A stretch of 64,000 bases of DNA from Cyanidioschyzon merolae. Taxonomy: Eukaryota. The notes beneath the pieces were generated by a model. The model worked only from the letters and a program-made list of their open reading frames with translations, made no database searches and was not told the origin of the DNA. Position 1 is the stretch's first letter; the number at the start of each line of letters is the position of its first letter. Below, in pieces: positions 1 through 49,195 of the stretch. The stretch is from NCBI GenBank assembly GCA_000091205.1, contig AP006501.2; one strand, written 5' to 3'. The position numbers were made by a program, and so were the translations under genes.

Positions 1-680
1 GCGTTGCTCATTGGGAGGCGCCGTGAGAGGAGTATACCAAGTCCCGGTGGGCTCGTTTGCGAATGAATTTGTATTGTGGGAAGCATCGGGCATTCGCGAA
101 TTTTTTCAATCAACTGAGTGCCCTGAAGGAGAATCAAAGTGAGAGGTTGGTAGTGACGTACGGAGCAGGGCGCTGGATGACCCAAAAAGGAACTACGCCA
201 GCTCCAACGACGAGAACGTACAAGGAATGTGCAAGGCGTTTCGCTACGATGCCTGTAGATCGGTTCCGAACGTCCTATACACACCATGAACTGGGTTGTA
301 CACTACAGAGAGTCGAGATGGAAAAGTGCCAACGGAGCTTTGAGGACATAGCAAAGTACGGACCGATGACGGGGGAGCAAATGGAAACAAGGGCGAACGT
401 TCGTGGACTCCTTGCACTTGTTAGTACAGTCAATGGCAACGAAAAACGGATGGAGTATGTGAATCGTGACTTTAATGCCGCTCTCAATATAAGGAAATGT
501 GCGGTGCTGGAGAAAAGACCTCCAGAGTAGACAAGACGGAACTTTATCGGACAACCTCTCAAAGTCGAACTATATGAGAAAAAGTTGGAAGACGTAGTGG
601 GTGACCCGTCGAGAACGACTCGCAGCCGTCTGCACGTCAGTCGGACACGTCTTGTCCAAGGCGCAGTTGCTGCCACGACT
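1..680 (+). mobile_element. TnpB/Fanzor-like RuvC nuclease gene relic, copy A. Its 5' part is cut off by the window edge. ORF 57-530 is intact, and a frameshifted continuation runs to about 680.
   Basis: ORF 57-530 carries the TnpB/Cas12 'VDRFRTSYT' motif (compare VDPxyTSQTC), a degenerate zinc-finger region, and the RuvC-III motif 'NRDFNAALNIRK' (D-x-NAA-x-NI). After the stop, a +1 frame reads 'GQPLKVELYEKKLEDV', matching the C-terminal tails of copies B and C ('GHPLQLEVYTEKLKRTAG', 'GQPLRVEMYGEKVKSIAGG'). Confidence 0.5.
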
Positions 681-723
681 GTACACAGCCGGAAGCTGTG
701 ACTGAGATTACGCGAAAGCGCTC

Positions 724-1428
724 ATGGCGTCGACTGGATCTGCCCCTATTGAACACGCTCGGGAACCGTGTCCTGATCGGATTCTAGACGATGTCGGAGG
801 TGCGTTTTGCATGGGCGCCATCGGTGGTAGCATCTGGCACTTTGTAAAGGGCATGCGCAACTCCCCAAGGGGCCAGCGACTCCTGGGCAGCATCGACGCC
901 GTAAAGCTTCGCGCACCGACGCTCGGAGGCAGTTTTGCCGTCTGGGGCGGTCTTTTTTCCACTTTTGACTGTGCTATTGGCGGTCTACGCGGAGTCGAAG
1001 ACCCGTATAACGCCATCGCAAGCGGAGCGATCACCGGGGGTGTGCTCTCTGCGCGGAGCGGCCTCCGAGCGTCGGCACGCTCGGCGCTGATCGGTGGCGT
1101 CTTGCTAGCGATCATCGAAGGGCTCGGAATTATGTTGACCAGAATGACTGCGGAGATGGGCCCAACTCCGGAAGAGGTCGAGCGGATGCGGCGAGAGTTC
1201 GCGGAACAGCAGCATCGGCAGCGACTGGAAGGCGGTGCCGGTACCCGTACCGCCGACGGCTTTGCGGCTCCCGCTGATGAGCGTCTGGGCATGGGCGCGA
1301 ATGACGTCGTTTTGACAGAAAATTCTGGCGTTCGGGTCGGAGGCAGTGCGGACCCAAGCAGTCACAGTGGCCAGAACGAGCCTGAACGCCGCGGCGGTGG
1401 CTTTCTGCGTTCCCTTTTTGGTAGCTAG
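724..1428 (+). CDS. TIM17: Mitochondrial import inner membrane translocase subunit Tim17
   Basis: 234-aa ORF. Its N-terminus '[36 protein letters not shown]...[29 protein letters not shown]...[24 protein letters not shown]' fits the Tim17/Tim22/Tim23 family with typical Tim17 spacing. A Gly/Gln-rich C-terminal tail follows. Confidence 0.9.
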
Positions 1429-2782
1429 GGTGACTGCGCTCGACACATGATTGATTGCTTGGAGGTCATACCGATGCCAGGAAACAGTCCGATTGAATAG
1501 AGAAGCTGGCGGAGCGCCGCTCGCTTTCGTTGCATGAACGATTGCCTGTTCTGGTCACTGCTGCGATGCAAATCCAGTGAAACTTGTGCTTGGTTGACGG
1601 CCTTGCATGCGATGAGGCCCGGCGTGAAACGCATTTTGGCTCGAGCAGCCCGCGTAACGTCGTCAGGGTTTCGAACTAGAGCGCGCTCGTTATCGACCAA
1701 GCAGCTGGATGCCAAGCTCGTTACAGAAGCGAGCGATCACCACGCGAAAACATTAAGAAACCCGTTGTGTCGTTCAAGTAGACTCAGTCGTATTTCAGAA
1801 TACCGCTCGCATCTTGCGGCCTTCAGTACAAGATTGAGCGTCCCTTAGCACGGTGAACCCGCAAGATTTGCCTGCTGCGATGAAGGCCCGCAGTGCCTTT
1901 CATCTCCGCAAAACGCAAACGATAGACAGGAGACGCCCCAGCGGAATCAACCTCGAAGCCTGTCAACGCTGATGGACACGACTCATTTGGAGCAGCGACA
2001 CAGTGCACCTTGCGGGCCGGTGCCATTTGGCCTTTAGGGAAATCCAAAACGACTCGTCCAAAGCGCAAGATGCACCATCCAGCCGGCCAAGGCGTCAGCA
2101 GTTTGGACGGTACGTATGCCGGCCGTGGCTGCCCGGCACTCGCAAACCAGGTGCACACACTGGATTCGACGCCCGCGTGACCCTAACGAGGCCCCCAGAG
2201 CGGAGCCTACTGCAGCCAAGCCATCCAAGTAGCACTGCAACATTCGCCGATGCGCAAAAATGTGCCGCATTTGAACCCGGCACTCAGGTCGAGCGCTTGT
2301 GCAGGGCCTCGGCCGACTCCCCCGAGGGGGCAGGCTCCAGAATCGCCGCTCCAACGCAGCACTCGACCGAATGATACGCTATACGAGACTTGAGCTTTCC
2401 GCGTCGCTTTTGCACACGTGTTCTGGGCTGCTTGGAAGCGACCCCAGTTGCTCGACGACATGCCCCGGTGGATGCTGCTCAGCGCTGTGGCATCAGGTCG
2501 GATGCATCGCCAGCTCCTGAAACGATGCCACATGAGGGTGACCCATCAGAGCGGGAGCGATCGCTCTCCATCGCCGGACACCAGTCCCTGCGTCCATATA
2601 CGAATCTGAAAATGTTGGTCATACTGAGTCTCCGGGGCGACCAGGGTGCCGCACCTACAGCACAGCGGCTGCTCGCGCGACGTCATCATGTTCTGCTGCG
2701 GAGGCCGCGTTCCCGCTGGGCACCGACCGAGGTTCGCGAACGCGTAAAGCTGCCGTCCAGTGCCTATCGCTGACCGATAGCT

Positions 2783-5700
2783 TTAGACGGAACGCCCAAA
2801 CCAGTGACGACACCGACGCTGGAGCACTTGCAGCGCGTGCTCGTTCGTTGCACCCTCAGCCTCCGCAGCGATGATCAGGAGACGTTCGGCCAGATCAAGA
2901 ACGGCTTCACCGCAGCTCTCTCCGACTTGTGGCAAGTTGTGGCCAGTCAGGGGCCACGGACAGGCGTCTACCAACGCCGCAGAGCCTGTCCAAGCAACGT
3001 CCGGCGAATCAAGCATCGAACCTGCATCCTGGAGGAGATCATTCACGAGCACAGCGTCCGTGTAGAGCTCCCAGACGAGTTGCAAATCCACCGGCCGAAC
3101 GAGTTGCGTTGCGGTAACCGGCTGGATCAGTTCCTGTGCAGCAGCTGCGGGGCATGCGACACCAGCAAAGCCGTTCGCAAAAGCGAAAAGGTTCCGCTCT
3201 ACAATCAGGGTCAGACATTCCGCATCCAACGCATTGTGACGTTGCATCCGCCGCGACAAAGTGCGTTCCAGCGCCAGCATGGTATCGTAACGGAGGGTGC
3301 ATTCGAGTAACCGCACATAGAGCGCAAAACATCGAAACTGCCAGTACGCAAAGCAGTGGTTATCGTAGAGCAACGGTGCATGCGGCAACTGCTCCGGTGC
3401 TACCAGATACCGGTGGTTCCACATCAACCAAAAATAGCCGTGCCGCGAAGCGCTCGACGCATCCACACGAAACAACGGCTCCAGGGCAGTGATCGCTCGC
3501 GCAGCGTCCTGATAACCACAAAAGACGCCCAAGGCGTACAGGTAGGCACTGCGATACGACGGCAGCTCAGCAAGTTGCGTCAGCACAGACCCAAGCTCAT
3601 CGTTCGATCCATTCGACCTCGTCGACCGCGTCGTCGTCGTTCCAGGATGTGCGCTCTTCGAACTCGGGATCCAACCGAGCGCTTGGTAGAGCGCATTCGC
3701 CAGCACTGCGAGTCGGTACTCGAGCCACGGTGAGTACTGCAACTGGGCCTGGCCGTGCAGTTGCTGAGAAAGTCGCGGCAAAGCGTGTTCATAGCGCGCA
3801 AGTCGTTCGGCGATACGCTCGACACTGCTTGCGTACGACACGGGGGGCGCGGCTTCGCCAACCTCCCGTAACCATTGCCAGTAATCGAGCAGAAGCGCTA
3901 CTTCTGACTCCGCTGCTGGTGCGTCTTCCGCATCCGGGGTATCGTCTTTCCCGTGCGCTTGTTCCCGCAATGTGCACAGCAGGTTGGGCATGGAAGCACG
4001 CGCGGATTCAACTGCGCGCTTTGTATCCGGCGCAAGTGTATCCCAAGCAGCAGCCGGGATATGTATCGGAAGTAAGAGATAGGCACAGTAGAGTGCCTCC
4101 CAGTGAGCAGCAGTATGGACAGCGTGAGCGTTTGGTGTACGTTTTGCGCCCGTGGCGTGTCTGCATGAAACGGAAGCGGCTGCTTCAGGAGCCGACGCGT
4201 GTCCAGCGGTACCGCTGTGGCTCGTCATTATGATTACTGCATCCGGGGCGTGTTTGTTGCCACCAGACGCGATCGTCTGAACGCCCACAGCGAACCGATG
4301 TGCTGTGAGCAGCCACTCCACGTACCTGTGAAGACGAAAGCGGTTCGCGTTGCCAATAAGTTCCGCTGTTTCCAGTGAAAACTGTGCAGCATGACGCATA
4401 CAGGTCGCCAGTGCCAGTGTTAACTCGGAATCATCGAGTCGCGGACAGAGTGCGCGTCTGTCCTCGAGGTTTGATACTTCCGAGTTGCATGCGAGCTGCT
4501 GCTCGGTACGCTCAATCGTACCTTTGCCGGGATGATCAGCAACGATGCCAACAGCCGCGGTAGCAGCCTCAGAAGACGGAGCATCTATCGCAGAGGCAGA
4601 GGTATCTCGTGAAACAGCTTCCGGATCGACAGCCTCGACCGCTGCTACTCCTGCTTCGGATGCATTGCCCGAGCCGGTTGCTTTCCTTTGCGTTGCTGCC
4701 GCGGGAGCAGAAGCCGCTGTGCCCATTTCTGTAGCTGGCGTCGGGGCTGCGGCTGTCTCCGATGCTGTTTCCGTTGACGACTTGGCTGCACCGGGCGACT
4801 CGTGCCGTGTCGCCCGAAAATACGGGCTAATTCGTGGGGCTGGGTTGTCGGCCTCAGGGGACAACAGCCCCTGTAGGCGCTTCCGGCCAACACATCGTTC
4901 TTGCTGCGGAGCATCCTGCTTCAAAGCTGCCGATCCAATGAAGAAAGGAAGCAGCAACTCAATGAGTGTCTGAAGCGCGTCTAGCAGCTCGGTTGGTAGC
5001 AGTCGAGCCCGTCGCTCTGGTTCAGCCACTCTCTTGTACTCCAGGTCCAGGTACTCCATCTGCAGCCGGAAATGATACAGAAGCAGATCCCGATAACAGG
5101 GCAACAGATAGCGCTGCTCGATACCGCTTGCTGCTTGGATCAATTTCCCAGTCCATTGCCATAGCGTGCGAATACGGGGTCGTGAGCGACTCGCGAGCAC
5201 GTCGTCAAGTTCGGACTGACCGAGGGTCAGCGCCGGACAGAGCGCCTCCGGTGGAAGCACCATCTGCTCTGGACGCAGCGCTCTAGCCAAGGTCCATGCA
5301 CTGCAACTCGCTGCCACTGGTGGACCAGATTTCAGTCCGATCGCTGAGCAGTCTAGGCCATAAAGCACATGCAGGCATTGAATGCGCTCCCAGTCGAGAC
5401 GCGAAAACCAAGAAGGATCCCATTCCGGACTACACAGCGAACATCCAAGAAACCAACGCGCTCCTTGCTCTGCAGAGAGCCGCTCCCACAGCATTCCCGC
5501 ATAGAGCTGGTAAAGGAGGCTACAAGCCTGCCGCATTCGTTCGGAGGCTCTTCGTTCCATGGACAAGGCCGTCCCACGCTGTAGCCGCAGCGCCAAGCCG
5601 TGCAGAAGCTGATGCAGAAACGCACCGGCGGAGCAGCGAACAGCTTCATCCGAGTCTGAGAAAGCGTGCGTTCGGATGAAACGCTCTCGCCCAACAACAA

Positions 5701-10958: not shown

Positions 10959-13749
10959 CCAAAAATATAGGGAGGGCGTCCGAATGGTCAGTCCTTGGTA
11001 TTTCAGACGGACATGTTAGCAGAGACTTTGAGCGCGGTTGAAAGACGCGGGCACTGCAATGGATCGCTTTCAAGACGAGCTGATGTGCTGCTGGGAAGCT
11101 GACAACGCTGGGTCTCGGCGAACAGCAAGCATCCAGGACTGTTCGTCTGGTAGGTAGACTCAGTGGTGACGAAAATTGGAGCACCATGCTGTCGCATATA
11201 TTGCCCAAGAAGATCGCTTTCTTTGTCTAGATACATCGCTGAGGCCTCGCGTACGATCTGCAGCTCCATACTTTTCCAGTGCCAGTCTCGAAGCGAAGAT
11301 GCCGCCGCTTGGCTCTTAGCCCCTGATCTTCTTTCATCGGATCTACTCAGTGTTTCAGCAAAATGCCCACACTGAGTATTCAACGATGATCTCGATAGGT
11401 CGCTCAAAAAAAGGCCGATGGACTGTATGGGAGCATGATAACTTTCCGGATGGTGATCGAGGCCTTGGAGTTGCGACGCGTAAAGTGCTATGACGCCTCG
11501 TTGCCGTTGGAATCACACCAAAGCAAGCGTCTCGGTTGACGACGGCCTTGCCCTCGGACGTTCGGTCAGCATTCCGTACACGATTTCGTGCATCTGTTTC
11601 AGTTTCATGCTTTCCTTGTATAGAGGTCCCATGGTACGTCGATGCTTGTGGTGTGTGTCTGTCGTCCTGAACGTATGCATGGGAATCGTACAACATCGAA
11701 TTCTGCACTCATCGCATGCTTTCGTCGAAGCAGCAAGAGTGCGACCTCTGCGCGCTCCAGCAAGTCCAGCATCGTAGGCTACAATGACACGACAAGACTC
11801 GGAGGTCATTTCCTTTCCCCATGCAATGAAAAACTCGGCAGAGGCATGCTTCTCGTGTTCTGAAAACTGCAGCTCGTAGCTACTTGAGCACTGTCTCGTG
11901 TAGGCCAGCCATGTGTATCGTCCGCAAGAGCCACTCGGATGTTCATATCCTCACTGGAAGAACCGTAGAAAGCATCTTCCTCTGCCGGACCTGGTACTCA
12001 GGACGTCAAGATAGGTCCTGACGCCGCTATTCCGCTTGTTGGTATGCCTGCTGCCTACGATCCTGCCCAGCTCTCGATGATTACGATCCCTGGGAAAATC
12101 AGATCATATTGCTTGTTCTGCATCGAGCATCAGTGGCGAGGTCATACGAGGGTTTCATCGAAGCATTTCAGAAGCGACTGGACAGCTGGTAGCCCTGCGT
12201 TCACAGCTCCTTCAAAGCGTTGCTTGACGACGTGCGTCCAAGCAAAGGCGGGGTAAGCAAGCTATGCTGGGCGACGATGCGACGCGAGCTTTCGTTGCGT
12301 CCTGCATCCCACATGTTGCGAGATTCTGCGCGTTACTATGTTTCTCATACAGAAACCTGTACAACAGTTTCAGGTTGATATGAACGCTTCGACGGTTCCT
12401 GCTTCCTGTCCCTCGCCGTCCTCTTTTCGGGAAGTTTAGTCGCTTGGTTGTTCTACGGTATCCTCTGCTGTTCAAATTCTCAGCGGAACGGAATAGCTAT
12501 GGTCGCTGTCCTCTGTATCCGTTGTTTACCGCGGACTCAGACTTACCGGATGGATGATGGAACCAAAAATTGCCTTCTCTATGTACAAAACTCCTCTCCC
12601 GCAAGTGCCTCTTCGGCACCCTCTCGTTCATGAACCGAGAGGCGAAAGAGCAGTTTAGGGCTGGTCTAGGTGCTGAGCGCCGCGTCGAAAATCTTGGGTT
12701 TCACAGATGCGAAGGACTCGTCTACTGATCCGTGAGCTTAGAAGCGGCGTTTTACAACGTCGTAGGAGACGCCTTGGACAGGATTGAAGCCAAGAGAATA
12801 GGCTGCCGCGAAGAGCTGCTCGACACCAGTGCCAGCTGCGCATACCTTGACCGCCTTTGGGTGCTGAAAAGCGACATTTTCTCAGGGCGGAACCGAAGAA
12901 TGTAGGAAATGAAAACCCCGAAATGCTTCGAAGAAGCGTGAGGTGCTCATCGATCCCAAGCGTTTGACGACTCGTGGGTGACTAGACAAAAGCATCGTTG
13001 ATGGGCCTGATATCCTTGGAATGCTCAATCATCTCTTCTTTGCGATCAGATGATTTTTCTTCTCTTTAAGGGTCCATAAACAAGCCTACCATTTCTCCCG
13101 AATGAATTTTCATGGAGTGAGACGAACACTCGGTTCTCCTGGAATAAGCGTTCCCATTTCAATACGAAAAATCAATGGAGTGATTAGGATCGTAAGGCGG
13201 TCTGTCGTAAAAGCGCGCTTTTTCTATCTGTGCCCATCCGAGTATCTTCATCGCTGGTTGTATCAAATGTGAAGAAACGTCACAGCCTGTGGATTCGCCG
13301 GTAGTATATCATGGACAACGTATGGGGTGCAATGGATTGCTGAGGATAACGTCGTTTCCATACCATATGATATGTACTGTTATGGGTGCAAGGCGTCCAG
13401 CATAAGGTCGATGAGAAGGTGCGTTCGTGCACCTGCTGTCGGTAGAATGACTCACTTTTAGCTGTAAAGCCTTTTGTCGCCAGCTATCAGTCAATACATC
13501 AAGTGTATCCACGACGTTCTTCTAATCTACAGAATCAACTTCTTTTCTTGGACATTTGCGTGAAAAACAATTCACGTCAACAATAACGTGTTGATACAGG
13601 AGGTCAAGCGCTCGCTGCGCTGACGATCATGCCAGGTACTTGCCCAGCAACGCTGCTCAGAGTCGTAGCGTTGCACGTTCTGCAGCGACGGGACGCGGGT
13701 ATTGATTCCATGGACGACGTGATAGTCTGTTAACGCACTTGGGCATTTC

Positions 13750-23619: not shown

Positions 23620-24690
23620 CTAGCCTGTGTAAGATTGTCCAATATCGTCGAGGACGCTATTGCTAGATTTGAACCTAAAGATATATATACATGCCAACTC
23701 ACAGACGCCTCCGAGTTTCTTACAACAGGCTCCTGCTGTCCGCTTCAGCTTTTCCGTGTACACCTCGAGCTGGAGAGGGTGTCCAGCAATGTTCGCTCGC
23801 ATCACATCCATGGGTCTCGTCTCCAGCACCGCATATCGTCTGATATTCATGGCGGCGTTCAAGTTGCGGTTCACCATTTCCGTTCGTTTATAGTTTCCGA
23901 TGGGACTCATCAATGCGAGGATTCCGAGAACTCGCGCCCCCAGTGCCTTTTGCTGCTCTGTATGGTTCCCGCGCTTTTCTATCGCCGGAGCGCACCGCTG
24001 CCTTATCTCCATCTCGGCCTTCTGAAGTGTACATCCTGGTTCATCCCTCGGATTTTCTATTTCCTCAAATGACCCCGATTGTCTAAGACCTTTGGTGATG
24101 ACCTAGCCGGAGGATGAGGGACTTGCGGAAGAGAGACGACATGTGTCCCGGTGTCACCGTGTGCTGAACGCTTCGGCGATTCGTCCAGTGCAGCGATTGT
24201 TACGTTTCACAATAGAAAACACTCTTCCGATGGAGTTCATCTACGGAGTGCACGGAGGAAGAGCATGCAGCTCTACCCCGATGGCATCGGAAAAAGACCG
24301 AACGCAACGGGTGTGGTCAAATGCCACGTTGTCGAACAGAGCGACGTTGCGAGACGTCAGCGAAAACTCTCTAATGGCTGGACGAAATTGCTGGTGCTGT
24401 TATATGAGCCTTCTGTACGAGCGAAACTAAGGCCGCCAAGTATATCCACTTCAGCTGGAAGAGAGGATAATGTCGTCGTTATCTTCGAGTTCGATCCTGC
24501 ATGGAACGGGCTCTATCTCCGCGACTACCCATATACGCTCCGAACGTCTTGTACGAAAAAAGTTTCATCGATCGAAACAAACCGCTCGATGCCCTCTGCT
24601 TCGTACTGATCGCGAGGTTCCAGGAACCCTGTCGTTGCGATTTCTTGTGGAAGATAGCGGAGTGTGAACTAGAACTTTTTTCCACTGTGT
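23620..24690 (-). mobile_element. TnpB/Fanzor-like gene relic, copy B. RuvC-III Asp is replaced by Asn, and the upstream part is frameshifted.
   Basis: ORF 23620-24012 (-): 'EIRQRCAPAIEKRGNHTEQQKALGARVLGILALMSPIGNYKRTEMVNRNLNAAMNIRRYAVLETRP...GHPLQLEVYTEKLKRTAG'. It aligns residue by residue with copy A ('EMEKCQRSFEDIAKYGPMTGEQMETRANVRGLLALVSTVNGNEKRMEYVNRDFNAALNIRKCAV'). Minus-strand frames at 24479-24685 ('SMKLFSYKTFGAYMGSRG') match copy A 'ERLVVTYGAGRWMTQKG' and copy C 'SMRLSWDETVGAYMDIRG'. Confidence 0.5.
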
Positions 24691-25427
24691 TCTAACGTTT
24701 TTAGGACCACACGAGCAAGCTGTTGCGAAAAATCGACGCGTGTGGCGACTAGCAGCGTCGCTTTTTGCTTTTCGTAAGGTTATCAACGGGTCCGTTGCTA
24801 CCAGTTACCGCAAACACGCTTTGAGCACATCGGTTTTTGGCGCGATGTGCATCTACTTTCTTTCAGTGTCTCTCAACCATCTGACTATTGTGGTATGTCA
24901 TACCTGAAGGAGAAGTGCTGTCCTCATTGCACTGTTCATTAAAGAATATATATATCCTACAGGCAAATCTAATACGATGCATACTGTAAAATGCATTGCG
25001 ATTCCGACCTCCTGCACTGCATCGCACCGGCGGTGGAACGAAACCAAGCTGGATGACGCGAAGCAGGCAGGCAAGGCAAATCATAGATGACTGAATTGTC
25101 TCTTCATTCGCGAATCTCTAACAAACAGCTCGTTCCTCGAAACTCCAGTTCTACACTCTCGCTTTCCAGCACCGTCTGTAGCGATGAACTCTGTCGATAT
25201 GGATCGCTGAGCGTGCTCTGTTTGACTGTCTCGCACGCTGCGGCAGTGGACACGCTCTTAGCTTGACACCTGGTGCAGCAGATGCGACTGCTGTACCTGT
25301 GAAACGGAGCCCGGTCGCCACCGCGCACTAGTCGCCGGGCTGGTTTTCCTGAGATCTGCGTTTCTATTTCTTCCCAGCGACGCTATTTGGAGCGAAATAA
25401 CGCAAACTTTTATTATTAGAGGAGTAA

Positions 25428-29456: not shown

Positions 29457-31277
29457 CTATCTCCGTCCGTGCAAAAGCGCCAAAACAACGCGGCGCATTT
29501 TTTCATACGCTACCTCAATATCATCATTCACAATACGTAAATCGAAACCTGTAATTTTCTCAGCGATATCCATTTCCTGGCGGGCGGCCTCCAGGCGCCG
29601 ATCGAGTTCCGAGGGACTCTCGGTCTCGCGCCGCCGGAGTCGCTGCTCGAGCTCCATCAGCGAGGGCGGTGCAATCCAGATATAGAACGCATCCAATTCC
29701 TGTCGATCCATCATGGTTTGTGCACCCTGCAAATCCAGACTCAGAATGCAAACTCGAGGCGATGGCGATTGCGTAACAGCTCGCACAGCACCAAACGTCG
29801 TCCCGTAGTAGTTGCCGTAAACGCAGGCATATTCGATGAATTTGCCTGCGGCGACATCCGCCAAAAAATTTTCCTTCGACACGAAATGGTAAGACACACC
29901 GTCAACTTCTCCTGGACGCGGCGCTCGCGTTGTTGTCGATACCGAATAGCCCAGATGGTTCGGAAACTCTGCTAGAAGCCGCCCTATGAGCGTCGACTTG
30001 CCCACCCCAGAAGGGCCAGTTACCACAATGGCGGTTACAGCAGGCGGATTTCGCGCCAAATCTGGCAAGTTGCGGGCGCTGCGTGCAGCGCGTCGCGACG
30101 CCACGTCATGGTTGGAGGCGTATTCTGCGTGCTGTGATGCTGCATTGCGCGCTGCGCTCGCTGGTGCGATGCGTGCTGCCTCTGCATAGTCACGTATGGA
30201 AACATACCATAGGGGTATCTTGTACGAGAGAAACCCCAAGATGCATGAAAAGACCTGACTCGATGTCAGCGTGCCTCGCTGCGATAGCACGAGGCTCAGG
30301 ATTGCCACCATGGGCGCCGCATAGCGCGCAGCAGAGAAGACGGACACCGCGCGTGGCTGCTCGGTGGTACTCGCTGGAGCTGCCGCAGCGCCAGCCAGAT
30401 CAGTGGATCCAGCGATGGGCTGCAGGCGATCAACGGATCGCTGTAATAAGCGAAGATAGAGGACGCCAGCCGATGAGCCAGCCGCAAAAGCGAGAGCGTC
30501 GGCGATTCCCGCGCGCAGGAAACAAACACAGACGCCAATGCCGGACGTAACGAGTGTGCCCTGCAGGAGCCACCTCTTCAATTTCTGGTACTCTTGCAGG
30601 CCTTGGTCGCGCTCGGCGATCATCTCTGGGCTCAGCGGTGCGCTCCTAGCGGGTGGCGGAAGCGCCTCTAACGTCCACACTCGGTTCTGTGGGTCATACG
30701 CTACTCTGTCGCATACGACGATTTCGGTGCTCGTGCGCCATACTGTTTTTCGATTCGAACTCTCGATGAACTTGTTGGTATCGCCGACGCGTTCTAATGG
30801 CTTTATATCTGTAATAACCTGGACAGAGTTCGCACGTGGTGTGACGCCCTCCACAACGCCTATGAGACGCTCCTCTCGCCATCTGCCTGGATAGAGCACA
30901 ATATCTCCAACCTGTGGATCGTTACGTATCGCGTTCGCAGCGTTGTCTTGCTGCGCTGTCAACATCCGACTGGTGCTGTGTGGGGCTGCTTCCTGAGCGC
31001 CTCGCTGAAGCAGGCGAACTTGAGGGGCTCGCAGCTGGGCTCTCCGGCTTCTACAACCTAGCGCTGGACGCCGACTGGTGCTTTCACTGCGTCGTTTTTC
31101 GGAAGCGCGTCGCCTCAGCGAGTGGTCAGTCACCCGGCACGCTGTCGAGCGCAGCAAGGGCACGAAACTGAAAGTTGAGCGCGGTGGTCCACGGTGTGCT
31201 GGGTACCGCCTTCGTTCAACGCGACGCCCAAGTCCCCAAGGCGGTGACTCGTATAGTCGCCGTACGTTCGGTGACAT
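29457..31277 (-). CDS. Guanylate kinase (C-terminal ~200 aa) fused to an N-terminal extension of about 400 aa that contains predicted transmembrane segments
   Basis: GK motifs 'IVVTGPSGVGKSTLIGRLL', 'YSVSTTTRAPRPGEVDGVSYHFVSKENF', 'GKFIEYACVYGNYYGTT', 'ILSLDLQGAQTM'. The extension holds hydrophobic stretches 'LVTSGIGVCVCFLRAGIADALAFAAG' and 'PMVAILSLVLSQRG...VFSCILGFLSYKIPLWYV'. Confidence 0.85.
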   Translation of the reverse strand: MSPNVRRLYESPPWGLGRRVERRRYPAHRGPPRSTFSFVPLLRSTACRVTDHSLRRRASEKRRSESTSRRPALGCRSRRAQLRAPQVRLLQRGAQEAAPHSTSRMLTAQQDNAANAIRNDPQVGDIVLYPGRWREERLIGVVEGVTPRANSVQVITDIKPLERVGDTNKFIESSNRKTVWRTSTEIVVCDRVAYDPQNRVWTLEALPPPARSAPLSPEMIAERDQGLQEYQKLKRWLLQGTLVTSGIGVCVCFLRAGIADALAFAAGSSAGVLYLRLLQRSVDRLQPIAGSTDLAGAAAAPASTTEQPRAVSVFSAARYAAPMVAILSLVLSQRGTLTSSQVFSCILGFLSYKIPLWYVSIRDYAEAARIAPASAARNAASQHAEYASNHDVASRRAARSARNLPDLARNPPAVTAIVVTGPSGVGKSTLIGRLLAEFPNHLGYSVSTTTRAPRPGEVDGVSYHFVSKENFLADVAAGKFIEYACVYGNYYGTTFGAVRAVTQSPSPRVCILSLDLQGAQTMMDRQELDAFYIWIAPPSLMELEQRLRRRETESPSELDRRLEAARQEMDIAEKITGFDLRIVNDDIEVAYEKMRRVVLALLHGRR

Positions 31278-31769
31278 GAAGGTAAAGAAAGACTCAACGA
31301 GAAGGCGAACGAGTCAACACACTGCGAGCGGCAGCCAAGTACACTCGTCCCTGTCCGGAAATCCGCATTGCGCAGTGGAGGCAATGCATTCTGCGTCGCT
31401 GGCGCCTGTTATGGATCGTCCTCGGCGCTTGCGCTGTCCTTCATCCATCCAAGATTATAGTCTTTCAGCTCAATTGTGTTTCAATCCCGCTGCGGTTCGT
31501 AGCAGGAGATCGATATTATAATGCAATATACCGGCTAAATCGCAGACGAATTGCATGCAGGTTATATTCTTTTCTGAGTAGTTCAAGGAGATTTGGATTG
31601 CTCCTCCTGGCCAGTCATATCATAGGACTCTGATGGTTCAGGAACACTGAAAGAAACAAGAATATAGGCTCTGCATCAAAAACATGAATTCTCAAGGCGT
31701 GCTTGCGGTAAATGGTAGAAAACGGTCCGTCGATCAGCCTACGGAAAGCGAATAACGATAACAGTTGCT

Positions 31770-32905
31770 GACATGGGCGTTTCTGTTTCTCTGCCCTTGT
31801 TGGTGCGCTCCTGAAAACGCTGGGATCCAATCGCACATAAAGTCCTACCACACGAACAGCCATCATCCACCGAGTTCGCAACTACAGAGTTCCTGGAACG
31901 CAGCGATCGGTATGAATCACAGGAACGTCGGATTGTTTTCACAGTCGATGAGACTTTCTTGGGACGAAACGGTCGGAGCGTATATGGATATTCGAGGTGA
32001 AGGGAGCCCGCTGTATCCAGAATCGAACTCGAAGAGAACGAGGATATTACCGTCTGTTCTAGATGCAGAGGATTCCAGTCGCGGCCTCAGTTTCGCTCGT
32101 GGAGGAGGCTCATAAGACAGCATCCACTTTGTCGAATCATCGAAGACTTTCACCCTGACTCCTGGCGACTTCCTTCTATTGGACAACGTGGCATTTGACT
32201 ATTCGCTTTGCGTTCGGGCTCTTGCCTATTCTATCGGGTTTAGAGCTGCTTCTCATTCCTCGATACGCTCCGTGGCTGATTCAGATGAAAGTATCGTTTT
32301 CTATTGTGAAACCTAATGAGCGCTGCACCAAGCGGATTCCCAAAGCGTTCCGCACCCGGCGACACAAAGGCGCGTGTAGTCTTTCTTCCGTCGGTCCGTC
32401 TCCCGCCAGAAAGGTCCTGAAATAAGGGCATGAATAAGTGCGTCCATTTTCAAAAAAATCCAAGCGAAAGGCATGGACATGGAAGGCGAGGATCCTGGAG
32501 GGCAGTCATTGGTGGATGCCGGAAAAGAACAAAAAGACTCATCAGCTCTCTGACCATCGAGCAGAGAAGAGCATATGACAACGACGACGAAGAAGAAGAG
32601 GAGAGATGTGCAAGAAATGAGGTTTGCCCGTCGAGGCGACAATGAGACTGTAGTGACTCAGCGGGCATGAGTTCAAGGAATCCTCGCATTGATGAGTTCC
32701 ACCTCCGGCAATACACGCATGCCGTTCAGGAACCGAAACTTCAACGCCGCCATCAATACCAGACGATTTGTCGTACAAAAGACGAGAACCGAGAAGCTGA
32801 CACAAGCGAGCTTTTCGGGCAGCCTCTCAGGGTCGAGATGTACGGCGAGAAAGTGAAGTCGATAGCAGGCGGCCTTTCGCACAGGGCTGGGATGCCTTTG
32901 TGAGT
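31770..32905 (+). pseudogene. TnpB/Fanzor-like gene relic, copy C. It carries multiple frameshifts, and RuvC-III reads D->N.
   Basis: Frames pieced from ORFs 31765-32115, 32195-32425, 32430-32645 and 32667-32903: 'SMRLSWDETVGAYMDIRGEGSPLYPESNSKRTRI', 'VQGILALMSSTSGNTRMPFRNRNFNAAINTRRFVV', 'GQPLRVEMYGEKVKSIAGG'. These are colinear with copies A and B. Confidence 0.5.
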
Positions 32906-34980
32906 AGGTGTAAATATGTACGCTGTGGTGGTTGAGCATTTTTGTTTTCAACATCACGTGTAGAAGGCAGGCCTTGACAACGACTTCAAATTGATTTTTC
33001 CGATTTGAGAGTTTTGCTTTCCTGTCCTTCCTGGTCCTCTTCTCGGAGGAAGCTTTCTCTTCTCTGTCTGGTGGATTCGTTTTTTCTCCGTTACCTGGCA
33101 GGGTGGCATTGATGTGGTCGATAGTCAGTACGTCCATCGAACCGGGAAGAAGAGGCTTGCACGAACAGCCGGATCGGCACCATTCGCAGCTTTCTATACA
33201 TTGAACGTTCGTGATTGATGGAATGCGATGTTGCCCGACAACAGGACAGAAGAATTTGGGGGAGCGGAATCTTTGAAGAGTGCTTCAACCAACGATATAT
33301 TGATGTACGATCCCGTCCTTTGGGCGGTTTGTCAGCGACCACTCGATCGAATCACCACCAGGGCGAATGCTTACCTTATGCTCATTTCTTTTTTCTTTTC
33401 GAACACTGGTACATGGAGACTCCTCGAGCACCCATTTGCAGGAGTACCATTTCTCCCGAATCGGCTCTGATCGAGTGAGACAAACACATGCACTTTCTGT
33501 TGGCAGCGATCACGATTCAGGACAAAAACGACAGCAGGTGGTGTAGAATGTGCGACGATCACCCGCAGAAGCGTACTTGTACCTGTGTCCGCTCGTGTCT
33601 CTTCATAGCCAGTCGTTTGAGCGGTACAGAAACTTCACATACTGTGGCTACTTCCATAGTATTTCTCAAAAAACGGATGAAGTAGGAAGGGCTGATAAAG
33701 AGAGATTCATTGGGATGGAGTCTGGGAAGTGCTGCTATGGGTGCAGCACTTTCTGTATATGGGCGGGGTGAAGGGTGCCAGAGCCACTTGCTGAGCGTCG
33801 GATAACTGACTTGGACATGCAAGACCGTTTCACCGTATGCGACGAGCGACAGCGCCATGACATTCCTCGACTTTTAGCCAATCTGCAACATTCATTCGCT
33901 TTGCTCAATCTTCGCATGAAACACGGGCAAAACAGAAAAGGCTCGCTGGTGCAGGTATCCCAGAATTCACTGCTCTGAGTATAATGCCCTTTGACGGGTA
34001 GCAGAGCTTCTTTAGCACCGATCTTTCTGCCAGAATGAAGCGTGCAGTGAGAAAAAACTAGGGCCCACATCTCGTGCTCCTACCTGCGTATTTTTCACGC
34101 ACACAAGAACGAACAGCCTCTTAGCTCATTCTCAGTTTTCTATGCACCCAGCGCACGGACGCTTCTCGTTCTCGTATCTGAGAATGTTCGACGAATCATG
34201 ACGGGATGCGAAGTGTTTTACTAATTTATCAGTGTTTCGGCGACTCGGCTGCTGGCCAATAAGCTTCTGTCAACGTCCTAGATTGGTTGCTATTGAAGCC
34301 ATCCGAGGATAATTCCAAGCGGTGCAATGCAAGAGGGGGCACTCGAGCCGAATTCTCGCCTCAAAGAAAAAATTCTCGATTAGCTCGAATAGCCACGATT
34401 ATGCTTGAGTCTTGAGGCACGAGCTCTCATGCTGACCCATATCCTCCGTAAACTCAGGTGGAATGTATGCAGCGATTACACCAACCCACTCAAGAGCGAT
34501 CGGCAAGCTAGGGAATCGCCCCGAGTGCCGGGTGCACTCCTTTCGTGCGCTCAGCGACGCCGGATGACAAGCACTGCATAAGTCTTCCACGGAGCAAACG
34601 ATAAATAAAAGCTATCCACCGGATGTTCTCATCATCCTGTTGATTTTTGCGTGCGAACAGCAGCGTTCGACATGAGCCAGCACTCAACTGTCGAATACTG
34701 ATCCAGCACGACAGGTCAAGCATCGCGTCAAAACACCAGCCTACGAGAGCAAACGAGTTTTTCGCCACAGCGAACGGCATCCGTGGAGTCTTTGGCGTCT
34801 CATACCAGTGTCGACATCCTATCCACGTTTCCGATACGAATCATGGAAAGAGCACTCACCGGACTCGTGATGCATCGGCCGCGCGAATCGCTCCCCATGG
34901 AAAAATTGGTAATTGTTCCCGGGCTTGACGCTCCGCTGCTCTCCAATTGGAGCATTCTCCATAGCTAACGCATCGAACAC

Positions 34981-47363: not shown

Positions 47364-49195
47364 CCTACGAGCTCGGCGACCATACGCTCTGCAGCTTTCT
47401 TAGAGCCCTCCAAACTTCGGGGCTACACGTTTCGCACGCATGGCGCCGCACCGGACACGTGTCGCATTCTCATACGAATCGCCAGTGCTCGATGTCGAAT
47501 CGCCGACGGTGGCGTGTGCTGGGAAAGTGTCCATATGATACATGCTTGTTCTATCTTTGCCATTTATCTTCCTTGCGGGATGGATATTGATGTTCGGGCA
47601 TGCGTCCATCATGCTTCATGCTCCGTCCAAGTACCATAAACCAAACATTCTTTCGGATATACTGGTCATTCCGTATGTTCAATCGTGCACCAAGTGGCGG
47701 CCTTGCTGCGTCCCCAATAGCACCTGTACCGCTGGTACGGATCAAGTACGGAGACAGAACAGCTTTGCCACACCACTAAGAGCGTGGGCCCGAGGCCGAA
47801 TGTATTCGAAAACCGGGCCGGGATTCGTGATCATGCTGGGAGCCTGTAAGCTGCGCAGACAAAAACTACTGCCTGTGGCAGCGCGAAGCGATGTTGTACG
47901 GGTCCAATGCGACCTGGACGACGCCCAGACGCAGCCGATATGCTCCTAGTCCCAGACTAAACTGCGTTGCGGACGAGCTGCTCAGGTGTTACTCCAACGT
48001 CCGCCAATGGGGACGCACGAAGCGTTTGCCCAGCAGACTCGTCGAGCTCGCGGGACCTTCCGCCTACAAGGTAGACTTTAGAATTTACGGAAAACATTGC
48101 CCGCTTTCAACGCATACCGTTGAGGGGAAAGAAATCGTTATCTCATCGCTAGTTAGTGGTTCGTTTGTGTTCTTTACTATGAGGATCGTTCAACACCTCA
48201 TCCGTCGTCGATGCTTTCTTCGTGCCCTCTCCTTTGCACGAGAACAATGAATCTCCGAGCGGCATTCCAGATATCACTGCAGCGTGGCTGCTATCGCGAA
48301 GGTTCAGCACACTGTATCGGCCTTGTGTGACGTCTTGCGAACGTGCCCCTTGCGAAGGCGTGAGCAACGCAGGGTTGGGGCTCTAAATGCACTGAAAGAT
48401 GCAGCGATGGAAACTGGAGTGAGGGAGCTGAGCGACCGACCTCCCGTCGTACGTGGAACGTATTGAAACCCATCAAACAGAACGAAAGGGTAGCGTCGAA
48501 TGTGCGTGTGGTGGACATCGATGAATTGCGGACGTCGATCACGTGTTTTTGGTGCACAAGTTGCCTCCCGAAAATGACTGGGATGACGACGAGACTCATC
48601 ACCAACGACGCAACGAAAGAAAAAGATTGATGTCGTGTATTGCTCGGATCCCCAAAGTGCAGCTCCACTAGAGTGTCAGACGCCAGGGCAGAGGGTAATC
48701 TTCCAGCCGAGGCACCATATCAAACCGTGACAACAGTGGATGCTCCAGCACTTTGTAGCTGTTAAAGATCAGAATGAGAGGAGGTCAACAACCTGCATCG
48801 CTTCGTCGCACAAGAGAAATTAGAAATCCAAGCCCAGAGGGAAAAAGCTTATAATCCTCCCATACCAGAGTTCTTGATACGAGAGAATGGCTGTTGTGTC
48901 CTGGGTCTCGTACACAACGAGCATGATGTACTCTGATACAGCAATGAGACAGCATTGGTATCAGATCGTACGCAGAGCCTGGCGGAGGCACCCGCGAGCC
49001 GTCGCGAAGCGCAGCTCCTGATGCGCGCGTCGATGCTGCAATCTGAAAGCGGCGGCGGCATCGCGACGCTGCACCACAGAGACTGCTTCGAGACGTTCAT
49101 GCCTTACTGCTGTGATTCACGAGCGCTTCACCATAACCGTGCCTTACACTGCGGAAAACTTTTGGGACTCTTGTAAAGAGTGGTCTGGTTCCTAG

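Follow-up and report, generated by a model that had tools for sequence, protein, structure and literature searches.

Fanzor was named in 2013 in a paper by Bao and Jurka (Mob DNA 4:12, PMC3627910) that lists Cyanidioschyzon merolae and has the CMe-1A element among its founding examples. CMe-1A is a repeat family of ~150 copies, each ~80% identical to a 3169-bp consensus that encodes a Fanzor1 protein of 734 amino acids (aa); its 5′ 635 bp are identical with TE-N2_CMe, a repeat in its own right with ~70 copies, and some CMe-1A copies are still intact (PMC3627910). That work found no terminal inverted repeats (TIRs), left target duplications undetermined, gave the classification as unknown and reported no transposase partner (PMC3627910). 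Here we analyse a stretch of 64,000 nucleotides (nt) of the C. merolae 10D nuclear genome, referred to throughout as the window, which carries Fanzor1 relics designated copies A, B, C and D. We hold it very probable that these loci are dead copies of Fanzor1-carrying DNA transposons, and no copy in the window is able to act as an RNA-guided nuclease any more. The family was described in C. merolae in 2013 and is not new; even so, its recognition as a Fanzor1 relic from raw sequence alone, in an initial annotation of the window, was correct and non-trivial.

Fanzor1 relics of the CMe-1A family

Copy A occupies the left edge of the window (1-720, plus strand) and consists of the 3′ 720 bp of a CMe-1A element, covering Fanzor1 residues ~517-734 and the 3′ tail. 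With the consensus DNA and protein taken from the supplements of PMC3627910, window positions 1-692 align to consensus positions 2452-3143 at 85.5% DNA identity (blastn), and CMe-1 protein residues 517-734 match copy A at 81.7% identity (tblastn, E = 6e-113). Homology to the consensus is firm to 692; a short hairpin at ~684-700 is followed by GAAAGCG, which resembles the consensus terminus, ending at 720. The last ~30 nt diverge from the consensus, and the element ends between ~702 and 720. The part beyond the window edge was read from contig L021, a close relative's version of this locus that shares 99.1% identity with window 1-4000; its position 4644 corresponds to window position 1. Contigs that encode Tim17 otherwise break inside the repeat. 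The L021 element is full length: an inverted TE-N2 fragment leads into the core, which covers everything from consensus position 648 onwards. Judged from this orthologue, copy A is within the genome a ~2.7-kb full-length copy directly upstream of Tim17 and, at the level of sequence, is an ordinary member of the known CMe-1A repeat family. The initial annotation had taken each copy to be the C-terminal ~300 aa of the protein, which does not hold: copy A is cut by the window edge, and copies B and C keep only ~55-110 residues.

To place the family among RuvC nucleases we drew on metagenomic relatives. Searches with copy A returned 194 protein clusters at E ≤ 0.01 and 60-90% identity, all metagenomic; none of the 194 carries a Pfam domain, and the longer ones reach N-terminally to a RuvC-I-like NDFVVGADPGNTNIITIA. 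A total of 370 CMe-1-type loci were confirmed in metagenomes, and 80 related loci (L-numbered) were fetched. Neither single sequences nor a shallow profile of 21 close homologues (A1) gave anything significant in PDB or Pfam, with only ankyrin noise for A1, and the A1-based AlphaFold model was poor (predicted local distance difference test, pLDDT, 40). An exhaustive HMMER search with A1 recovered 1108 relatives, including many intact proteins 600-700 aa long. The profile built from 42 intact metagenome relatives (A2; for example P0122, P0131 and P0148) matches copy A at E = 4e-49 and finds the solved Fanzor1 structures of Parasitella (9cf0, E = 7e-18), Spizellomyces (8gkh, E = 2e-9) and Guillardia (9cer, E = 1e-4). 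The fold comparison was made on P0122, an intact relative 43% identical to the C. merolae CMe-1 consensus over 665 aa. Its AlphaFold model, built with A2 (pLDDT 84.4, predicted template modelling score 0.83), matches SpuFz, PpFz and GtFz over the full length in Foldseek (E = 5e-16 to 4e-14, template modelling (TM) score 0.53-0.73; for SpuFz, E = 5e-16 and TM 0.62/0.73), whereas matches to TnpB, Cas12f and Fanzor2 reach only E ~1e-3. Pfam recognises no member of the clade above threshold, its Cas12f1-like_TNB matches lying at E = 0.002-0.2; copy A alone stays below threshold in Pfam (E = 0.06, at its RuvC-III motif), and it is the A2 profile that links it to solved Fanzor1. A tagaturonate reductase match of copy A alone in Pfam/NCBIfam was rejected as spurious.

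The arrangement of catalytic residues agrees with this assignment. Three acidic residues are invariant in A2 (n = 42), namely the Asp in GxDPG, the Glu in VDEFRT and the Asp in NRD. In the consensus, RuvC-II is rearranged (VVAYGAG ... VDEFRTS), with the canonical Glu replaced by Gly; the alternative Glu, ~35-45 residues downstream, is essential, and its mutation abolishes Fanzor cleavage (Jiang et al. 2023, PMC10530073). On the combined basis of the A2 profile, the predicted fold and these residues, the family is Fanzor1, as the first reading of the window as an old, multi-copy family of TnpB/Fanzor ancestry borne on a transposon had proposed. Conserved CxxC pairs are absent from all 42 relatives in A2, and CMe-1 has only THHELGC...EKC; by its alignment, the CMe-1 clade is a zinc-finger-less Fanzor1 lineage. 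The degenerate zinc-finger spacer reported earlier is borne out in that the cysteines are degenerate clade-wide, and does not exist in copies B and C, where the region in question is a probable transposase relic. Just before RuvC-I, the Fanzor open reading frame (ORF) also carries an acidic unit of ~25 aa, ..KHEEKKEADPATQEVQENDFVVD.., in 1-4 tandem copies (L004:1610-1850, L021:4073-4370, residues 410-505 of the L030 protein); its copy number varies, and its tandem repetition accounts for a coverage peak among the reference loci.

Every window copy has lost catalytic residues. Frame 3 of copy A (3-713) reads ...RLVVTYGAGRW...VDRFRTSYTHHELGC...NRDFNAALNIRKCAVLEKRPPE*TRRNFIGQPLKVELYEKKLE... and contains two in-frame stops, a TGA at 24-26 (HWEAP*EEY) and a TAG at 528-530 (RPPE*TRR), the latter at a position where copy B reads through. 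In L021 these two, both inside the window range, are the only stops over a frame of ~800 codons. The normal stop codon of the family is mutated in copy A, and the frame continues to 699-701. The alternative Glu is lost throughout: copy A has Arg in VDRFRTS (255-275), copy D reads MHTFRTT, and the region is missing from B and C. A VDxxxTSxT motif had been assigned to all three loci first described (A, B and C); it is present in A and decayed in D, and the part of the protein that would hold it is gone from B and C. The family-invariant RuvC-I Asp is intact in the orthologue of copy A (VVGADPGNT in L021, at a position outside the window), deleted in B and C, and unrecognisable in D. A RuvC-III-like motif and the GxPLxxExYxEKxK tail do occur in A, B and C, and only A keeps the RuvC-III Asp, as originally noted: NRDFNAALNI at 462-491 in A, against NRNLNAAMNI at 23871-23842 (minus strand) in B and NRNFNAAINT at 32731-32760 in C. 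This Asp does not make copy A catalytically competent, because the essential alternative Glu has been lost. With its two premature stops, its Glu-to-Arg change and its lost normal stop, copy A is, by its sequence, a pseudogene.

Copies B and C are recognisably of the same family. In a tblastn search of the window, the copy A translation matches B at 24042-23731 (minus strand; 50% identity over 105 aa, E = 5e-24) and C at 32662-32879 (plus strand, one frameshift; 46% and 43% identity, E = 1e-10), and CMe-1 protein residues 612-723 match B at 51% identity. The relatedness of the three loci also holds at the DNA level, with 67% identity between A and B over 236 nt and 69% between B and C over ~1.33 kb. 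Searching A2 against the six-frame translation of the window placed B at profile positions 551-604 (23770-23940, minus strand, E = 3e-8) and C at positions 555-603 (32674-32826, plus strand, E = 9e-6), with a weak N-terminal piece in C (32575-32655, positions 5-31, E = 0.47).

Copy D (11419-12437, minus strand) had escaped the initial annotation, as had an N-terminal Fanzor1 fragment at 32895-33098 and a TE-N2_CMe copy at 47573-48175. It is a strongly decayed relic spanning profile positions ~391-566 (RVIVAYDAG...MHTFRTTDTHH), found by tblastn with copy A (~11845-11419, E = 2e-8) and with the CMe-1 protein (E = 3e-13), and its Fanzor alignment has 27% identity over 212 aa. A2 matches it at 11497-12091 (positions 391-566, E = 6e-9), with a very weak N-terminal piece at 12354-12437.

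By analogy with characterised Fanzor1 systems, a live protein of this family would be a single-RuvC, RNA-guided endonuclease of double-stranded DNA, with catalysis resting on the GADPG Asp, the alternative Glu in VDEFRTS and the NRDFNAA Asp. The fetched loci include L030, in which 778 open codons keep GADPG, DEFRTS and NRDFNA intact although the start codon and the final ~30 codons are missing, and L034, with 772 open codons and a decayed N terminus and RuvC-III motif. These frames agree with the published observation that CMe-1A includes nearly or fully intact copies.

The 3′ end of the element and a candidate omega RNA

Coverage of the reference loci by other copies falls sharply 115-130 nt after ...ELYEKK, which marks a sharp right boundary common to the copies. 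The tail has a common order: GGGAGGCGTCTGCACGTCAGTTGGAGACGTTTTGTCTAG at the end of the ORF, GGCG...CGCC, ACTACTGTACAC, and a terminal palindrome that differs between subfamilies (for example CGTTGGCGTCGTTCGActtTCGAACGGCGTTGATG, AACGTTTTTCttttGAAAGACGTT or GCGAGCACGCGCtcgtGCGCGTGCTCGC). Family-wide, the sense strand of the last 150 nt is predicted to fold more stably than shuffled sequences or the reverse complement. A 99-nt domain from GAAGCAGTAGTGG to CGCCACTACTGTACAC reaches -37.0 kcal/mol on the sense strand; its reverse complement reaches -28.3 and shuffled versions -30.8 (mean z -1.8). In its 9-bp closing stem, CAGUAGUGG/CCACUACUG, a coding segment is paired with a conserved non-coding motif at a mean pairing probability of 0.55. 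For the terminal hairpin segment, the 55 nt after the motif, 46 copies average -18.5 kcal/mol on the sense strand, -13.7 on the reverse complement and -14.5 after shuffling, with 3.2 versus 0.8 G.U pairs, and 21 cluster representatives give -18.1, -14.7 and -14.8 (p ~0.002-0.003). The 3′ end of the well-preserved copy L065 folds at z -3.33. By its position and predicted folding, this 3′ domain resembles, at the level of the family, an omega RNA that overlaps the ORF end and runs to the right end of the element. Such an omega RNA would derive from the last ~95 nt of the ORF plus the 60-70-nt tail to the transposon right end, and its guide would be the flanking DNA beyond that end.

In the window itself, the initial expectation of a structured RNA in the 3′ flanks finds no echo, the tails folding no better than shuffles (z -0.07 in A, +0.22 in B and -1.40 in C); it is the family as a whole that shows the folding. 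On those family-level statistics, copy A has a decayed counterpart of the domain at 575-720. Its closing-stem arms, CAGTAGTGG / CCACTACTG in the consensus, are complementary at six of nine positions with a pairing probability of 0.00; its 3′ motif, CCACGACTGTACAC, lies at 672-685 and its short terminal hairpin, CACAGCcggaaGCTGTG, at ~684-700. Rfam contains no known RNA that matches anywhere in the window. A small hairpin near the stop codon, AGACnnnnnGTCT, was rejected, being coding sequence and pairing in a different register in the window copy.

Three points tell against the candidate omega RNA. A strand-specific DNA hairpin at the end of a transposon could produce much the same folding signal; the copies are related by descent, which inflates the p-values of the folding tests; and RNAalifold, run on 49 unique aligned 3′ ends, recovered an invariant 3-bp stem only, with no compensatory changes. 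After this last result, energy comparisons, the more informative measure here, took the place of a covariance model.

The most serious competing explanation is that the foldable 3′ end is a DNA-level transposon end, with strand-specific subterminal hairpins recognised by a transposase, or an mRNA 3′-end or terminator element. The absence of covariation in RNAalifold would fit it, as would the lack of TIRs in CMe-1, the subfamily-specific terminal palindromes at the right end, and a further hairpin (GCGCTCagtGAGCGC or GCGCGgtcgataCGCGC) at which the core begins on its left side, since hairpins at both ends are a signature of Helitron2 and IS200/IS605 elements. Against this, the many G.U (G.T) pairs and the 5-9 kcal/mol greater stability of the sense strand fit an RNA or one DNA strand, the 9-bp closing stem joins the non-coding motif to a coding segment ~90 nt upstream, as in omega RNAs that overlap ORFs, and in all Fanzors tested to date the bound RNA comes from precisely this place (PMC10530073, PMC10432273). 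The two readings are moreover compatible, because the omega RNA of TnpB and Fanzor is a transcript of the transposon end. We regard a DNA-level or terminator function as possible, with the odds leaning away from it.

The left end of the core was located in the fetched loci, outside the window (L013:2602-2640, L022:2613-2650 and equivalents). The stem of its hairpin is subfamily-specific, reading GCGCTCagtGAGCGC in some subfamilies and GCGCGgtcgataCGCGC in others. A TE-N2 fragment adjoins the core in opposite orientation in L021 and L013, and other copies have unrelated 5′ modules; because these modules differ between copies, the CMe-1 core starts at about consensus position 640 and its 5′ parts are interchangeable. 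The left-end hairpin, the right-end palindrome and the lack of TIRs recall the ends of IS200/IS605 or Helitron2 elements, and a classification with these was considered; the fetched loci showed no Rep/Hel or Y1 gene.

Probable composite relics of a DDE_3 transposase and Fanzor1

Copies B (23650-25015, minus strand) and C (31502-32945, plus strand) are probable composites in which a putative transposase relic precedes the Fanzor1 sequence. In B, a DDE_3 relic at ~24133-24719 is followed by the Fanzor1 C-terminal tail at 23710-24042. In C, the DDE_3 relic (31779-32389) is followed by the Fanzor1 5′ region and N terminus (32436-32655, with 32436-32535 matching consensus positions 869-968) and then by C-terminal residues ~640-729 (32644-32909, with 32670-32836 matching consensus positions 2849-3019). 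The ~900 bp common to B and C upstream of the Fanzor tail read, across frameshifts, FVSIDETFF...VYGxSRR...LFDNVAFDH...LPPCTPxMNSIGRVFSIVK, and the frame-stitched translations match Pfam DDE_3 at E = 2e-5 (24.8 bits) for B and 4e-6 (27.2 bits) for C over profile positions 2-134/146. The first two acidic motifs (DET.., L.DN) are readable and the third is decayed. The segments 24100-24720 and 31780-32390, which the initial annotation had read as TnpB-like, are probably DDE_3 transposase relics. A further DDE_3-type relic lies directly upstream of copy D in the same orientation (12705-13141, minus strand; tblastn with the stitched B/C DDE sequence, E = 6e-6).

These loci suggest that B, C and D stem from an older, related type of element in which an IS630/Tc1-mariner-type DDE_3 gene would have stood upstream of the Fanzor1 gene. 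Copies B, C and a copy in L040 have one common internal deletion that joins Fanzor residues ~1-55 to ~612/640-734, and B and C would accordingly share a single loss of residues ~56-611. At locus L085 a DDE_3 relic is followed directly by a full-length CMe-1-type Fanzor gene. DDE_3-linked relatives of this kind (B, C, D and the L085 type) are not mentioned in PMC3627910, and they hint at the transposase that moved a family whose classification has stayed open.

Alternatively, two transposons with no relation to each other may have come to be nested by chance. Repeats that adjoin or interrupt one another are common in C. merolae, TE-N2_CMe adjoins the CMe-1 core in either orientation, a Fanzor N-terminal fragment adjoins copy C, and no TIRs enclose the DDE_3-Fanzor pair. 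Accident would, however, have to produce the same order and orientation at three window loci and in L040 and L085, an identical junction at consensus position 869 in C, L085 and the second copy in L040, and a uniform 69% identity of B and C over both parts; a Mariner transposase followed by Fanzor1 is also a documented architecture (PUl-1, PGv-1; PMC3627910). We therefore think nesting unlikely and favour descent from one composite element.

Several results weigh against a DDE_3-mobilised transposon as the source of these loci. The DDE_3 scores of 24.8 and 27.2 bits lie just under the Pfam gathering score of 28.6. A search for TIRs around B, C and D yielded only short chance pairs. The absence of TIRs from CMe-1A is itself unexpected for an element mobilised by Tc1/mariner transposases. 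As for copy A, no empty, pre-insertion site upstream of Tim17 was found in the six related contigs searched.

Two further fragments in the window are related to CMe-1A. The isolated N-terminal Fanzor1 fragment at 32895-33098 (minus strand), RKDRKAKLSNRKNQFEVVVKACLLH, matches A2 positions 4-63 (32895-33059, E = 8e-8) and CMe-1 residues 14-60 (40% identity, tblastn). It lies within an ORF at 32673-33137 (minus strand), tail-to-tail with the end of copy C, which suggests nested or abutting insertions there. The TE-N2_CMe copy at 47573-48175 (plus strand) matches CMe-1A consensus positions 38-636 at 79% identity (blastn, E = 4e-142).

Host genes and comparison with known systems

The origin of the window follows from its host genes. 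Tim17 at 724-1428, guanylate kinase at 29457-31277 (minus strand) and a MAK3-like acetyltransferase match C. merolae 10D proteins BAM83018.1, BAM83025.1 and BAM83023.1 exactly, all three on one 1.28-Mb chromosome; because of these matches, the window is nuclear DNA of this thermoacidophilic red alga, which has a compact, intron-poor genome. Its G+C content is 50-60% throughout. The right end of copy A (~702-720) falls 4-22 nt before the Tim17 ATG at 724, and six of six related Tim17-encoding contigs carry the insertion, which is thus old and fixed. On this placement, the 5′ untranslated region (UTR) of Tim17, and perhaps its promoter, would lie inside the transposon or be read through it. Tim17 is an essential mitochondrial import gene, here with a transposon end fixed directly before its start codon. 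A further case of a CMe-1 element directly before a host gene in this compact genome is seen at L004:2922-4433, where a 503-aa FtsZ-type gene (Tubulin and FtsZ_C) begins ~100 nt past the end of another CMe-1 copy.

Fixation before Tim17 in all the related strains or metagenome contigs sampled, together with one long frame broken by only two stops over ~800 codons, might speak for a domesticated, Fanzor-derived host gene, an option that the initial annotation had kept. Copy A has nonetheless lost its essential alternative Glu and its normal stop besides acquiring the two in-frame stops, all copies have the sharp right boundary in common, and the published class is that of a repeat family. There are, in addition, hundreds of decayed paralogous copies in metagenomes at 60-90% identity, with frameshifts, besides the ~150 at ~80% in C. 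merolae. Domestication of copy A or of the family is accordingly very improbable. Nuclease activity from the copy A locus today, sustained for instance by read-through of its stops, is very unlikely: its RuvC-III Asp and the intact GADPG of its orthologue stand against two stops, an Arg in place of the Glu whose mutation abolishes Fanzor cleavage (PMC10530073) and a broken closing stem (6/9 complementary, pairing probability 0.00).

A wider reading would join four propositions: that CMe-1 descends from an autonomous element pairing an IS630/Tc1-mariner (DDE_3) transposase with Fanzor1; that its zinc-finger-less Fanzor1 uses a sense RNA of ~160 nt, which combines the closing stem CAGUAGUGG/CCACUACUG with internal hairpins and, at the right end, a terminal hairpin rich in G.U pairs; that a few near-intact Cyanidioschyzon copies, such as L030, may by their sequence be active RNA-guided nucleases at ~42-45 °C; and that the fixed copy A, ending no more than ~25 nt from the Tim17 ATG, may have been exapted to supply the 5′ UTR or promoter of that gene. 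That all four hold together seems to us doubtful. If the first were true, the 'classification unknown' status of CMe-1A would be settled. A candidate omega RNA domain of a zinc-finger-less Fanzor1 from a thermoacidophilic alga may also be of interest for compact, heat-tolerant editors. The proposed DDE_3-Fanzor composites, the candidate omega RNA domain and the position before Tim17 are incremental additions to the 2013 description, and they leave Fanzor biology as understood unchanged.

Among known systems, the IS200/IS605 TnpB of ISDra2 (8H1J) is a distant structural match to the CMe-1 clade model (Foldseek E = 2e-3, TM 0.18-0.30). The two have in common the RuvC core, the lack of TIRs and hairpins near both ends, and may also resemble each other in drawing a guide RNA from the gene's 3′ end together with the element's right end; the position of the Glu differs, the CMe-1 protein is ~330 residues longer and no Y1 TnpA accompanies it. 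The Mariner/Tc1-Fanzor1 composites PUl-1 of Pythium ultimum and PGv-1 (Bao and Jurka 2013; Jiang et al. 2023) have the same order as B, C and D, with Fanzor1 following a DDE transposase gene in the same orientation, and Fanzor-only non-autonomous derivatives occur in both settings, PUl-4 beside PUl-1 and CMe-1A likewise here. PUl-1 has 24-bp TIRs and TA duplications, whereas TIRs were not found around B, C or D, and the C. merolae transposase copies, unlike PUl-1, are all decayed, with Pfam scores just under threshold.

The solved Fanzor1 proteins SpuFz1 (8GKH, 9CEU-9CEZ), PpFz1 (9CF0-3) and GtFz1 (9CER-T) have the whole-length fold that is predicted for P0122 (TM 0.53-0.73), at only 13-16% sequence identity. 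They share with CMe-1 the RuvC-I Asp, the replacement of the canonical RuvC-II Glu by Gly, the alternative Glu in (V/L)DE(F/Y)(R/K)T(S/T) and the RuvC-III NRD, and both groups are multi-copy and transposon-borne. Two features set the CMe-1 clade apart from them: loss of the CxxC...CxxC zinc ribbon that would lie between the alternative Glu and RuvC-III, and the acidic 25-aa tandem repeat before RuvC-I. Finally, copy A belongs to CMe-1A of C. merolae itself (Bao and Jurka 2013; Repbase): it has the same 3′ end, ...CCACTACTGTACAC...GAAAGGCG, and differs from that family in nothing essential, being an individual decayed copy.

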